DNA from: a virus
Reading direction: 5' to 3' (one strand)
Virus record (IMG/VR): IMGVR_UViG_3300017917_002953
Coordinates: 5,481 to 69,480 of that record
DNA length: 64,000 nt
The notes under the pieces are model-generated. The model had not been told where the DNA came from and did not search any database. It saw only the letters and a list, made by a program, of their open reading frames with translations. Of the stretch, positions 61,900 through 63,780 are shown one piece after another (the first letter of the stretch is position 1; every line of letters begins with the position of its first letter). A program made the position numbers and the translations under genes.

Positions 61900-62009
61900 A
61901 GTCAGGTGGCGAAATTGGTAGACGCTATGGAGCTAGAGAGTGCACCGATGCATAGGTGTTGGCGACAGAACAAAACACTCTCGTACAGGTTCGAGTCCTG
62001 TCCTTACTA
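61900..62009 (+). ncRNA. tRNA-Leu-like scaffold 1 (59-nt non-canonical insert)
   Basis: AGTCAGG-TGGCGAAATTGGTAGACGC-[insert]-ACAGGTTCGAGTCCTGT-CCTTACT-A; one acceptor-stem mismatch. Confidence 0.75.
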
Positions 62010-62024
62010 CGAAAAATTTAAGAT

Positions 62025-62261
62025 ATGGATATTGATGAAAAACAAAGGTTAATTAATTTAATGTTTTCAATGGTGTTATCGGCAACAAACGACCCGGTAT
62101 TTTGTAAAAAACCAAGAGGAGAACGAATGGCGTGGGTTGCTAACAATCTTAGAGAAATGGGTTACGATACTCATCCCGTAGGAATGAGTTGGGGGGTGTT
62201 AGTTAATGAATGGTTTAGGGAAACAACACCAATTATTACAGATAATTTGGAGAATTATTAA
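62025..62261 (+). CDS. Small hypothetical protein between scaffolds 1 and 2
   Basis: ATG 15 nt after scaffold 1; stop 5 nt before scaffold 2. Confidence 0.65.
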   Translation: MDIDEKQRLINLMFSMVLSATNDPVFCKKPRGERMAWVANNLREMGYDTHPVGMSWGVLVNEWFRETTPIITDNLENY

Positions 62262-62266
62262 AAATT

Positions 62267-62365
62267 AGTCAGGTGGCGGAATGGTAGACGCTGAGGGTAA
62301 AAGTAATGAATAGACGTATTCTCCCGAGTAACGGTTACATACAGGTTCGAGTCCTGTCCTGACTA
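62267..62365 (+). ncRNA. tRNA-Leu-like scaffold 2 (49-nt insert)
   Basis: AGTCAGG-TGGCGGAATGGTAGACGC-[insert]-ACAGGTTCGAGTCCTGT-CCTGACT-A. Confidence 0.8.
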
Positions 62366-62379
62366 CAAAAAAAAATTAT

Positions 62380-62604
62380 ATGAGTTTAAGTGAAAAAATA
62401 CAACAAGTTTTTGATTCCGGACATTCATTTTCGTTTCAAAATGAGGTTAAACGAAGTGATGGTGAGTGGTATTCAAGAATTACTTGGAGACATCTTCAAT
62501 TACCAGGTAATCGACTGATAAAAGAATGTGAATGGTTTGGGTTTGAAACTATGGAAGAATGTGTTGATGATTGTTTAAAATACATAAACACTATTGAAGA
62601 ATAA
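62380..62604 (+). CDS. Small hypothetical protein between scaffolds 2 and 3
   Basis: ATG 14 nt after scaffold 2; stop 3 nt before scaffold 3. Confidence 0.65.
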   Translation: MSLSEKIQQVFDSGHSFSFQNEVKRSDGEWYSRITWRHLQLPGNRLIKECEWFGFETMEECVDDCLKYINTIEE

Positions 62605-62607
62605 ATT

Positions 62608-62784
62608 AGTCAGGTGGAGGAATAGGAAGACGCTACCCACCAACACACATAGGGTGATTTAGATTGTTGTGTGTGTCGATTGTAGCACGTATTATAGCGA
62701 AAGTGACTGAAACTAAGGTCGTAGTATAATCGTAGTGTATAGGCAAAGCAATCACTCGAGTAGGTTCGAATCCTACCCTGACTA
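62608..62784 (+). ncRNA. tRNA-Leu-like scaffold 3 (126-nt insert)
   Basis: AGTCAGG-TGGAGGAATAGGAAGACGC-[insert]-GTAGGTTCGAATCCTAC-CCTGACT-A; compensatory T-stem changes. Confidence 0.8.
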
Positions 62785-62799
62785 CAAAAGAATTTAATT

Positions 62800-63054
62800 A
62801 TGAAAGACAGAGGATGTAATAATTGCAAACACTATAAATCAGAGTTTGATTTTTGGGGTGAAAAACCTACTCAACGAATTTGTTTATCCGGGAAAGATAA
62901 GGAAGTAAAAGAGTGGTGGGATAATAATGGTAAGAAAACCATTGAAGATGAAATTGACCCAATGGATTGTTTTGAACCAACGGAATCATCCGTCATGTTA
63001 GGTAAGATGAACTCACTTTTAGATAAAATGGGTGATATTGTGGGAAAAAAATAA
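62800..63054 (+). CDS. Small Cys-containing protein after scaffold 3
   Basis: CNNC...C...C; ATG 15 nt after scaffold 3. Confidence 0.65.
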   Translation: MKDRGCNNCKHYKSEFDFWGEKPTQRICLSGKDKEVKEWWDNNGKKTIEDEIDPMDCFEPTESSVMLGKMNSLLDKMGDIVGKK

Positions 63055-63094
63055 AAATATATTGAGTTTTTTAAAAATATTGATATATTTATAA

Positions 63095-63237
63095 TTTCAT
63101 GGTCCGAGAGGACAAACATCCCCACATTTTAATTTCATATTAAATTAAGTAGTACTCACTATTACTAATTTTGTTATGAAGTATATAACCCACAAATGTA
63201 TTTTCGAGAGAATTTATTGATGTGGGTTTTTTTTTTT
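63095..63237 (+). ncRNA. Candidate structured small RNA
   Basis: Follows TATTTATA; GTCC-GAGA-GGAC hairpin, a long hairpin, and AACCCACA/TGTGGGTT with a T tract. Confidence 0.45.
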
Positions 63238-63246
63238 GAAAAAAAA

Positions 63247-63277
63247 TTTGGCAGTTAAAAATAAATGAGTACCTTTG
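63247..63277 (+). promoter_or_regulatory. Bacteroidota housekeeping-sigma promoter
   Basis: TTTG, 19-nt spacer, TACCTTTG. Confidence 0.75.
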
Positions 63278-63284
63278 TACTCAC

Positions 63285-63412
63285 AATAATGAAATACAAA
63301 AACGGCCTGGTTGGTAGACAGGGAGATTTTGAAGTTATATTATCTCAAGGGGAGGAACAAACTTGATGTGGGTACACACAAGTCCAAACTATAAACCATT
63401 GTTTTCATTATT
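63285..63412 (+). ncRNA. Candidate multibranch RNA leading into scaffold 4
   Basis: Closing stem AATAATGAAA/TTTCATTATT with three internal hairpins. Confidence 0.5.
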
Positions 63413-63413
63413 A

Positions 63414-63602
63414 AGTCAGGTGGCGGAATTGGAAGACGCTAATGGAGATATAGTCAAATCAGCGGGATAACACGGACAAGTGGCTCTATGTCGTTAGGGG
63501 AATTGCAAACCCTCGGTGGATTATCTAAACCAAGTGGCTATGGGTTAATAGGTGTACAACTATGAACTCTAAATCGTACAGGTTCGAATCCTGTCCTGAC
63601 TA
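63414..63602 (+). ncRNA. tRNA-Leu-like scaffold 4 (138-nt insert)
   Basis: AGTCAGG-TGGCGGAATTGGAAGACGC-[insert]-ACAGGTTCGAATCCTGT-CCTGACT-A. Confidence 0.8.
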
Positions 63603-63615
63603 CTAAAATAAAATT

Positions 63616-63780
63616 ATGAAAGTATTAGTTATTTTAATTATTATGAGTTTGATTTCAATATTCATACCTCATAAATCGACAAAATATAATTTTAGTTGGC
63701 ATAGTCGATTGCTATTAACAATAACTTTTATGTATGGCGTAGGATATTGTTTATTTAAGATTATAGAATTGATAAATTAG
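63616..63780 (+). CDS. 54-aa two-TM membrane protein between scaffolds 4 and 5
   Basis: Manual translation MKVLVILIIMSLISIFIP...KIIELIN*; the TAG stop overlaps the start of scaffold 5. Confidence 0.6.
   Translation: MKVLVILIIMSLISIFIPHKSTKYNFSWHSRLLLTITFMYGVGYCLFKIIELIN

Follow-up and report, generated by a model that had tools for sequence, protein, structure and literature searches.

Several known systems place RNAs shaped like transfer RNA (tRNA) next to genes or cargo. In the tRNA-punctuated transcripts of mitochondria and in the tRNA-miRNA units of gammaherpesviruses, tRNA-shaped units abut coding or cargo segments, and RNase P together with a 3' nuclease sets their ends. In the laboratory, engineered tRNA scaffolds have the anticodon arm swapped for an arbitrary RNA, the hybrid then being processed as a tRNA would be and gaining the stability of one. 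Among phages, the tRNA cluster of T4 encodes two small stable RNAs amid small open reading frames (ORFs), rnaC (species 1) and rnaD (species 2), whose roles are described as still unknown in an excerpt of PMC3014915. T4-type phages also carry PeSL, short conserved repeats that flank small ORFs in hyperplastic regions and for which modular shuffling has been proposed (PMC2839356, PMC4122927, both in excerpt). Here we describe five tRNA-like elements, E1 to E5, that alternate with small ORFs near the end of the virus contig IMGVR_UViG_3300017917_002953. The window that we analysed comprises 64,000 nucleotides (nt), bases 5481-69480 of this 69,480-nt contig, whose CheckV completeness is 24%, so that the absence of an integrase from the window's own genome is not proven.

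All five elements lie on the + strand within 61900-63909 and consist of a tRNA acceptor stem, a tRNA-Leu-type D arm and a T arm, while the anticodon and variable arms are replaced by unrelated inserts of 57, 47, 124, 136 and 78 nt in E1 to E5. We call the common frame the scaffold, or chassis. In the lines below, A73 is the last base of each element and C74 the base that follows it.

E1, 61900-62009 (A73), C74 at 62010, + strand: 110 nt, insert 61927-61983, a C4/U69 mismatch in the acceptor stem; 30.7 bits with the Rfam tRNA model, 83.4 bits with the covariance model.
E2, 62267-62365, C74 at 62366, + strand: 99 nt, insert 62293-62339; Rfam tRNA 38.0 bits, covariance model 92.2 bits.
E3, 62608-62784, C74 at 62785, + strand: 177 nt, insert 62635-62758; covariance model 57.9 bits.
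E4, 63414-63602, C74 at 63603, + strand: 189 nt, insert 63441-63576; covariance model 63.6 bits.
E5, 63779-63909, C74 at 63910, + strand: 131 nt, insert 63806-63883; Rfam tRNA 38.6 bits, covariance model 79.2 bits.

The shared 5' end, about 26 nt long, contains the acceptor strand AGTCAGG, then UG and the D arm, and the shared 3' end, also about 26 nt, contains the T arm, the acceptor strand CCTGACT (CCTTACT in E1) and an A, with a C always next. A preliminary description of the locus was accurate in depicting elements with conserved ends and a variable folded middle. A 10-nt 5' motif occurs exactly five times, with 0 mismatches, and a 23-nt 3' motif also five times, as against 0 occurrences in 100 shuffles. 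The T stem of E3, GUAGG/CCUAC, is a compensatory variant, and the minimum free energy (MFE) fold of E2 contains the acceptor stem, the D arm, an insert stem and the T arm. In fact, a covariance model from relatives picks out exactly E1 to E5 in the 64-kb window, at 57.9-92.2 bits. For E5, E2 and E1 the Rfam tRNA model exceeds its gathering score (29), provided that the middle is passed over as a local gap of 32-69 nt. Nothing other than tRNA is matched in an Rfam scan of the array region; a match resembling a Na+ riboswitch, inside one of the small genes (ORF84, below), reaches 22.6 bits against a cut-off of 40.5 and is taken as chance.

The same scaffold recurs in many other phage loci. A scan of IMG/VR with the exact 3' motif yields at least 139 loci; among the loci listed there are 165 distinct elements, from 54 to about 360 nt long, and arrays of 3-7 are common. 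Covariance model R1, which was built from 45 elements (alignment A1), has 217 matches in 77 loci. Across 132 distinct sequences of its best 150 matches, 98.7% of the cells in the 15 modelled pairs are paired, and 12 of these 15 pairs carry compensatory changes, which 0 of 500 shuffles reach; slid controls are 31-39% paired. The Levitt pair covaries as well: A15 goes with U48 in 128 and with C48 in 7 of 140 members, and G15 with C48 in 6 of 9 (Fisher p = 9e-6, optimistic like the other Fisher values given here, family members not being phylogenetically independent). Because the loci were fetched by the exact 3' pattern, and the pairs counted on a model-fitted alignment of the 150 best matches, the near-invariance of the acceptor stem and T arm is partly there by construction. 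Relatives that were fetched otherwise carry compensated acceptor variants, AGTCATG/CATGACT in locus L145 and G5-C68 in L046.

These elements share with canonical tRNAs a 7-bp acceptor stem, a D arm, the T-loop consensus, A14, G18G19 and the covarying 15-48 pair. The first 24 nt of the scaffold match an annotated phage tRNA-Leu at 96%. Judged by sequence, the chassis is of tRNA-Leu type, with its 7-bp acceptor stem, D arm, T arm, 15-48 pair and discriminator A73.

The T4 cluster offers the nearest comparison. When it is searched with R1, only tRNA-Leu (24.6 bits) and rnaC are matched, the latter at 1404-1507 (- strand) of locus L231 with 20.7 bits (E = 3e-4 in 5 kb). Like the scaffolds, rnaC and rnaD are small RNAs of a phage tRNA cluster lying among small ORFs, and the 3' part of rnaC, about 100 nt, has a perfect T arm and acceptor-type pairing followed by A-C-A-A, as in the scaffolds and in the tRNAs of the freshwater phages considered here. 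In contrast, T4 has one copy of each RNA and no common chassis with exchangeable inserts, and beyond generic tRNA features the sequences are unrelated. Given the weak score, the T4 species 1 RNA is best seen as the closest natural analogue rather than as a member of the family.

The family is phage-restricted. In 185,579 species genomes the exact 3' scaffold has 15 matches, all in contigs of metagenome-assembled genomes (MAGs), many of them binned as Bacteroidota. In 50,697 phage records there is no full-length scaffold, since nothing covers 80% of the query, and in isolated phages what is found are partial matches of 24-35 nt, T-arm or D-arm, mostly to ordinary tRNA genes. Because the exact 3' scaffold is so rare in cellular genomes, we discarded the idea of a copy of a common host tRNA, and an attP core is unlikely for the same reason. 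Full-text literature searches returned no description of the scaffold family, its insert diversity or the leader motif described below, a result that does not prove them unpublished; all three appear not to have been described before.

One might read the elements as true tRNA-Leu genes, or other tRNA genes, that contain introns, or as tRNA pseudogenes in decay. The Rfam scores of E5, E2 and E1, with the insert treated as a local gap, fit this view, and ARAGORN, when introns are allowed, makes calls for 126 of 197 elements. However, the anticodons called in intron mode scatter over isotypes, many with an unnatural A34, and the introns are placed anywhere from 26 to 41. The elements lack the 5-bp anticodon stem, 7-nt loop and usable anticodon of a decoding tRNA; in some family members a 4-bp hairpin is all that stands in for the anticodon arm, which leaves no room for a real one. 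Group I introns are typically longer than 200 nt and have a conserved catalytic core; the window inserts measure 47-136 nt, and no intron family matches them, either at gathering score or at E of 10 or below. As to decay, pseudogenes would not retain 98.7% pairing and compensatory changes across at least 139 loci, and decay is excluded because the scaffold helices covary. We give intron-bearing or decayed tRNAs very little credence.

Two other classes of RNA, transfer-messenger RNA (tmRNA) and the Y RNA-like YrlA, likewise mimic the T arm, D arm and acceptor, and genes of these classes adjoin scaffolds in relatives. A tmRNA has G3-U70, pseudoknots and a tag ORF, whereas the scaffolds have U3-A70; the window yields no hit to the Rfam tmRNA model, which does detect tmRNA in relatives, where tmRNA genes adjoin the tRNA and scaffold islands (L140 16687-17081, L017 4014-4459 and L072 4104-4478, all on the - strand). 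In YrlA the tRNA-like module is permuted, its acceptor being closed and its ends lying at an extended, open stem on the anticodon side that binds Ro, whereas the acceptor ends of the scaffolds are open; YrlA has no match in 61700-64000 at E of 10 or below. In two relatives we did observe matches to circularly permuted tRNA-like RNA of the YrlA type, both below the gathering score of 69: one at L141 13846-13941 (40.9 bits), the other around L145 13165-13240. A Ro (TROVE) domain is found in just 1 of 5 relatives.

How might such RNAs be made? The bases that flank the scaffolds point to the tRNA pathway. Among the canonical tRNAs of these loci (L001-L164), U-1 precedes 152 of 214, and C74 is present in 205 of 208, with A/T-A and not CA behind it. 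Thus, only the first C of CCA is templated in nearly all tRNA genes of these phages, a uniform and unusual 3' trailer. For the scaffolds, U-1 is found in 137 of 168 members and C74 in 169 of 171, where an A-rich run comes next. Because these flanks are common to both, we infer that the scaffolds undergo the same 5' and 3' processing as the phages' tRNAs. A nucleotidyltransferase of the CCA-adding type is encoded in both of the 2 relatives that are at least 90% complete.

To explain these observations we propose, with modest confidence, that the elements are tRNA-like RNA genes that are co-transcribed with the small genes and matured by the tRNA pathway, the cleavages punctuating the transcript. 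In detail, the five elements would belong to a phage RNA island and be transcribed together with the small genes from two promoters. The host tRNA-maturation machinery would act on the transcript: RNase P would cleave in front of A1, a 3' nuclease would cleave at C74 or behind it, and a CCA-adding enzyme would complete the 3' end. The products would be stable tRNA-shaped RNAs, and the rest of the transcript would be chopped into minimal mRNAs, each with an A/U-rich leader of 13-15 nt and a trailer of 3-9 nt. The fixed register of the small genes would then be the tightest packing of a start, behind an unstructured leader of at least about 13 nt, and of a stop beside a processed, folded RNA. 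Finally, the 25-nt scaffold ends would serve as repeats at which inserts and ORFs are exchanged by homologous recombination.

The small genes that would be released in this way are the following.

ORF78, 62025-62261, + strand: conserved small protein; 79 protein clusters at 56-82% identity, 65-94 amino acids (aa), with 25 invariant alignment columns.
ORF74, 62380-62604, + strand: conserved small protein; 11 clusters at 56-96% identity.
ORF84, 62800-63054, + strand: small cysteine-containing protein; aa identity of 90% to L141 and 73% to L046/L047.
ORF54, 63616-63780, + strand: hydrophobic; its stop uses T(-1)A1G2 of E5; no homologue in the fetched loci.

The 79 and 11 clusters and the 73-90% aa conservation lead us to regard ORF78, ORF74 and ORF84 as real genes; for ORF84, identity with L141 is 90% at the aa level as against 76% at the nt level. 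None of the four matches a Pfam or PHROG family, and they are mutually unrelated, the best pairwise blastp hit having E 1.6. The distances originally noted are exact: the ATGs at 62025, 62380, 62800 and 63616 follow A73 by 15 nt (E1), 14 nt (E2), 15 nt (E3) and 13 nt (E4), while ORF78 stops 5 nt before E2, ORF74 3 nt before E3, and the TAG of ORF54 (63778-63780) overlaps the first two bases of E5.

This register is not a peculiarity of the window. Of the 183 scaffolds that are followed by at least 200 nt of sequence, 96 have an ORF of at least 40 codons whose start lies within 100 nt; for 32 of these 96 the start comes 13-17 nt behind A73 (mode 15, n=14), and for 6 it is closer than 13 nt. The leaders are A/T-rich and without G. 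On the upstream side, 56 of 157 members with at least 200 nt there have an ORF ending within 40 nt, and for 39 of these 56 ORFs the end falls in the interval from 2 nt inside the element to 9 nt ahead of it. At the canonical tRNAs of these loci the register is less pronounced: an ORF lies behind 61 of 202, and 9 of these start at 13-17 nt. The comparison of scaffolds with tRNAs gives p = 1.2e-5 for any downstream ORF (96/183 vs 61/202), Fisher p = 4.5e-5 for the 13-17 nt register (32/183 vs 9/202) and p = 0.015 when only elements with an ORF are counted (32/96 vs 9/61). The register is thus general to the family, weaker at tRNA-ORF junctions generally, and not tied to particular ORFs. The start distances set in abruptly at 13 nt, peak at 15 and then tail off, a shape expected from a minimum spacing combined with genome compaction; a selected leader length after cleavage fits equally, and since scaffolds exceed tRNAs in this respect, scaffold and ORF may have a more specific connection.

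The same numbers can be read without any cleavage. The elements could be uncleaved, cis-acting parts of the mRNAs, the fold, 13-15 nt ahead of a start codon and 3-9 nt behind the preceding stop, guarding the cistrons from exonucleases or aiding ribosome loading, which presumes a host that does not use Shine-Dalgarno pairing. The excess of ORFs behind scaffolds over those behind tRNAs, overall and at 13-17 nt, speaks for this, as do the A/T-rich leaders without G and, in locus L166, a deleted scaffold that still stands 15 nt before a homologue of ORF78. However, 87 of the 183 elements have no ORF of at least 40 codons starting within 100 nt, and many lie head to tail with other scaffolds or with tRNAs. 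In the three large relatives the elements sit in 1-2 RNA islands and not before genes generally; U-1 and C74 flank them as they flank genes that are certainly processed; and homologues of ORF84 and ORF78 in other phages function without an upstream scaffold. We therefore consider a role in cis rather improbable.

Punctuation requires that the elements and the ORFs share a transcript. Upstream of E1, two further ORFs and a conserved leader precede the array, and the sites that frame its transcription are as follows.

Promoter-like site 1, 60984-61014, + strand: TTTG, 19 nt, TAnnTTTG, ahead of the operon that holds E1 to E3.
Upstream ORFs, 61036-61290 (84 aa) and 61233-61736 (167 aa as listed), + strand: precede the leader.
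Array leader RNA, 61745-61899, + strand: 155 nt, conserved and structured, ending at the base before E1.
Terminator-like hairpin, 63189-63236, + strand: GC-rich 6-bp stem 63189-63194/63221-63226, then T10; kept in L141 and L145.
Promoter-like site 2, 63247-63277, + strand: exact two-box match, starting the unit of E4, ORF54 and E5.
Non-coding segment, 63283-63413, + strand: 131 nt directly 5' of E4, closed by a 10-bp long-range stem.

The motif scanned for was TTTG-N19-TAnnTTTG, which we take to be the Bacteroidota-type promoter consensus. The 64-kb window has five exact two-box matches, and the extended -7 box is present only at site 1 and, at 63270, in site 2; on the + strand there is no two-box match between 61015 and 63246. 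A simple scanner for sigma-70 promoters and terminators is uninformative for this type of organism and missed the hairpin at 63189-63236, which has a long loop. Because promoter-like sites stand at 60984 and 63247, with none between them, and the terminator-like hairpin lies at 63189-63236, we envision two putative transcription units: one transcript would carry the two upstream ORFs, the leader, E1 to E3 and three small ORFs, and a second would carry E4, ORF54 and E5.

The two upstream ORFs have homologues at 81-93% and 60-64% aa identity in L141, L142 and L144-L149 and match no Pfam or PHROG family. In relatives reached via neighbouring proteins the order is the same, the 167-aa ORF being followed by a conserved non-coding stretch and then by a scaffold array. 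This stretch, the leader, has a core 18-mer that is present in 57 IMG/VR loci (L174-L230); of 41 distinct copies, 32 have the start of a scaffold 130-139 nt behind the core, and one has a terminator hairpin instead. Among 39 sequences the leader forms five helices of 24 pairs, including a 2-bp pseudoknot, with 99.4% paired and 9 pairs compensated (0 of 500 shuffles); the pseudoknot pairs were chosen from a covariation scan of the same alignment, which makes their own statistics circular. It has no Rfam match at E of 10 or below. The leader may act as a regulator of entry to the array; alternatively, the RNase P cut at E1 may set it free as an RNA of its own. The segment 63283-63413 may in turn be a further small RNA or the leader of the second unit; in the window sequence its MFE is -29.3 kcal/mol (z = -2.16), and 4 of 200 shuffles are as stable. 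As a separate observation, the 90 nt behind E5 (63911-64000, + strand) are modestly structured (z = -1.23). No ATG in register lies behind E5 (63909), a point that the preliminary description had passed over, and within 91 nt the contig is at its end, probably because assemblies break at repeated scaffolds.

The preliminary description had offered tRNA punctuation as one of two readings. Its structural part has held up, with a covarying tRNA fold, tRNA-like flanks and no promoter match at 61015-63246, while cleavage is so far a prediction; the reading is partly supported overall. The resemblance to punctuated transcripts lies in tRNA-shaped units that abut cistrons, the gaps here measuring 13-15 nt on the downstream side and from -2 to 5 nt on the upstream side. 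The differences are that the phage units are non-decoding, carry a large private insert each and belong to a DNA phage of bacteria.

Several points weigh against this proposal, besides the retrieval by pattern and the shared ancestry mentioned above. The whole elements E1 to E5 fold no better than their shuffles (z -0.02 to -0.60), and their inserts are not unusually stable either (z = -1.77, +0.26, -0.40, +0.23 and +0.90 for E1 to E5). The 64-kb window contains no canonical tRNA (ARAGORN, 0 tRNAs), so that the tRNA-island context of the scaffolds is seen in relatives only. The promoter scan used a Bacteroidota-type consensus, and the phage's own sigma factor might have promoters inside the array. 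The same register would be expected if the elements stay attached to the mRNAs. Lastly, a pure processing role does not explain the diversity of the inserts or why the acceptor sequence is conserved beyond pairing.

The other early reading saw in the array an integron-like cassette system, in which the elements are analogues of attC sites for a dedicated recombinase. In fact, integron attC arrays do resemble the locus in that short ORFs are separated by elements with conserved ends and variable middles, and the comparison of relatives that had been called for shows that ORF and insert content differs between phages, with homology breaking at scaffold ends. Homology to L141 stops at 61926, the end of the 5' scaffold of E1, and resumes at 62762, the start of the T arm of E3; between these breaks L141 has other inserts, a 57-nt mini element and a 34-aa ORF in place of ORF78-E2-ORF74. 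Homology to L145 stops at 61907 and resumes at 63045. The small genes also appear in different positions in different phages. Homologues of ORF78 lie inside arrays in the window, L084, L165/L166/L171 and L169, in front of the leader in L167, and without an adjoining scaffold in L168, L170, L172 and L173; in L046 the homologue of ORF84 has another ORF before it and a scaffold after it, with no scaffold preceding. The solo scaffold of L166 (1449-1485) consists of a 5' acceptor and D arm joined to the 3' acceptor strand, without T arm or insert, and this remnant too can be counted for a cassette system.

However, integrons have an integrase, attC hairpins and units of ORF plus site, and none of these is found at the phage array. 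The 69-kb contig has no Phage_integrase (PF00589), Resolvase or RVT_1 domain, the Resolvase search having covered the window's own contig. In the relative G001 (309 kb, 100% complete), whose array is syntenic, neither an integrase nor a reverse transcriptase is found; the same holds for four further large relatives, apart from an integrase fragment of G002 that is interrupted by 3 stops and lies about 46 kb away from the array there. As RNAs, the elements form a four-way tRNA-like junction, a cloverleaf with T and D loops whose helices covary, and not imperfect hairpins. There is no constant unit of ORF plus site, as homologues of ORF84 and ORF78 occur with, without or with different flanking elements. 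Moreover, breaks at scaffold ends would arise in any case: all copies have no other sequence in common, and the coincidence of boundaries with these ends is therefore weak evidence. We thus reject the integron-like reading as highly improbable and favour, as still unproven, the punctuation of a co-transcribed array.

Near-identical strains from three other studies keep the adjacencies E1-ORF78-E2, E2-ORF74-E3 and E3-ORF84-E4, and their assemblies break at scaffolds. Apparent deletion joints, such as 61898 to 62266, were rejected as strain-level loss of cassettes: their short side of 21-30 nt comes from other elements with the same scaffold. The exchanges seen between relatives are probably the work of ordinary homologous recombination between repeated 25-nt scaffold ends and not of a dedicated recombinase. 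Here the likeness to PeSL is instructive. In both cases repeats flank variable ORFs, and the insertions and deletions relative to L141 and L145 are bounded by scaffold ends; the PeSL, however, are promoter-terminator DNA motifs, whereas the scaffolds are covarying tRNA-like RNAs with no promoter match inside the array. With this PeSL-like layout, no fixed unit of ORF and site and no recombinase, homologous exchange between the repeats is the economical reading.

What, then, are the inserts for? About 165 of 191 inserts are non-redundant after the removal of near-duplicates, and they have no common motif, the best 6-mer being present in 12 of 165. Small insert subfamilies do preserve their stems by compensatory changes, read by eye, in L003/L054/L085, in L013/L049/L098 and in L037/L091/L111. 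It is possible, though we think it doubtful, that the chassis is a delivery vehicle, a stable, CCA-ended and perhaps leucylated tRNA mimic, and that the insert is a decoy, a sponge or an aptamer directed at a factor of the host or of a rival phage. The inserts would then evolve fast under conflict, and the small ORFs would be mere neighbours in a hyperplastic region. Insert diversity without any k-mer common to more than 12 and the compensated stems of the subfamilies are what such a vehicle would predict. Engineered tRNA scaffolds are used in just this way; they are a laboratory device, of which the phage elements would be a natural counterpart.

The chassis itself is suggestive in this respect. 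A73, A14, A15-U48 and G18G19 are present in all five window elements, and A14, A15 and U48 together in 128 of 191 members; as excerpted from PMC9976931, these match most of the features essential for the E. coli leucyl-tRNA synthetase (LeuRS), A20a being left out; the E. coli set further comprises an intact contact of the D and T loops. The same excerpt states that the E. coli leucine identity set needs neither the anticodon nor the variable arm and that tRNA-Leu variants lacking both arms stay chargeable, which gives a possible reason why a Leu chassis tolerates any insert. These features allow aminoacylation without showing it: the rules are those of E. coli, and those of a Bacteroidota LeuRS, and hence of the host, may differ. 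Leu identity accounts neither for the A1-U72 pair nor for the invariance of the acceptor sequence, and the 5 relatives examined encode no class-I synthetase of the Leu/Ile/Val/Met type. Nor does a target emerge, as the inserts, the segment before E4 and the leader have no match or complement above shuffles in the rest of the contig (the other 67 kb). The ordinary stability of the window inserts also speaks against a delivery vehicle.

A broader and quite speculative picture joins these elements into a natural tRNA-scaffold display. Host enzymes that ignore the anticodon would mature an invariant chassis, add its CCA and perhaps leucylate it, and this chassis would present at least 165 kinds of RNA insert with fast turnover, as decoys or aptamers against factors of the host or of competitors. 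The pseudoknotted leader would control or license the array, and the identical ends would let phages swap inserts and small genes, forming an accessory array at the RNA level without a dedicated recombinase. We hold this to be improbable in its entirety.

The surroundings of the array fit a large aquatic phage. Pond and freshwater metagenome runs contain the window sequence, and the phage is a freshwater phage of roughly 290 kb, probably with a Bacteroidota host. SprB and Fib_succ_major domains among the window genes give it a Bacteroidota flavour; other genes encode DNA methyltransferases and collagen-like fibres, and a sigma-70 family factor and a full-length DnaJ are phage-encoded at 27046-27843 and 35821-36741 of the window. 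As a side observation, the sigma-70 factor and DnaJ, the freshwater origin and the Bacteroidota-like genes together resemble the aquatic 'moraphages' as described in an excerpt of PMC12619734, a likeness by description. At 43159-49439 we also note three successive large ORFs with collagen triple-helix repeats and a C-terminal endosialidase chaperone (Peptidase_S74), which are likely tail fibres.

In relatives and at other loci of the family, the scaffolds sit among dozens of canonical tRNAs. The three large relatives that were searched (309 kb and 100% complete, 270 kb and 99%, 246 kb and 80%) have 5-9 matches to the scaffold model per genome, some of which are probably canonical tRNAs, and these matches are limited to 1-2 islands. 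GOLLD RNA (279-305 bits) lies 1.7-3 kb downstream of the arrays at L140 14230-14655, L145 14161-14568 and L004 476-890, and the window contig stops short of the position where relatives have it. GOLLD near phage tRNA islands was already known (bioRxiv 10.1101/2024.12.08.627333; PMC5737381, both in excerpt). Besides the scaffolds, these islands contain Rfam tRNA matches of 80-99 nt, such as L141 14095-14185, in which otherwise canonical tRNAs have D-loop insertions and enlarged anticodon loops. A covarying hairpin is inserted in the D loop of the scaffold at L141 12784-12947, L145 11960-12103 and L046 4197-4366. Expansion of tRNA loops seems common in these phage islands.

Phage tRNA islands are usually taken as sets of tRNAs for codon supply or anti-defence. 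Elements such as E1 to E5 are overlooked by tRNA finders or dismissed as pseudogenes or intron-bearing tRNAs, and their repeats break metagenome assemblies at the array locus, which probably hides such arrays. Should the elements be excised, they would provide a case of tRNA punctuation in a bacterial virus, making minimal mRNAs, and nature would have preceded RNA engineering in the use of tRNA scaffolds. Should the inserts prove functional, the family would be a large untapped pool of small structured RNAs.

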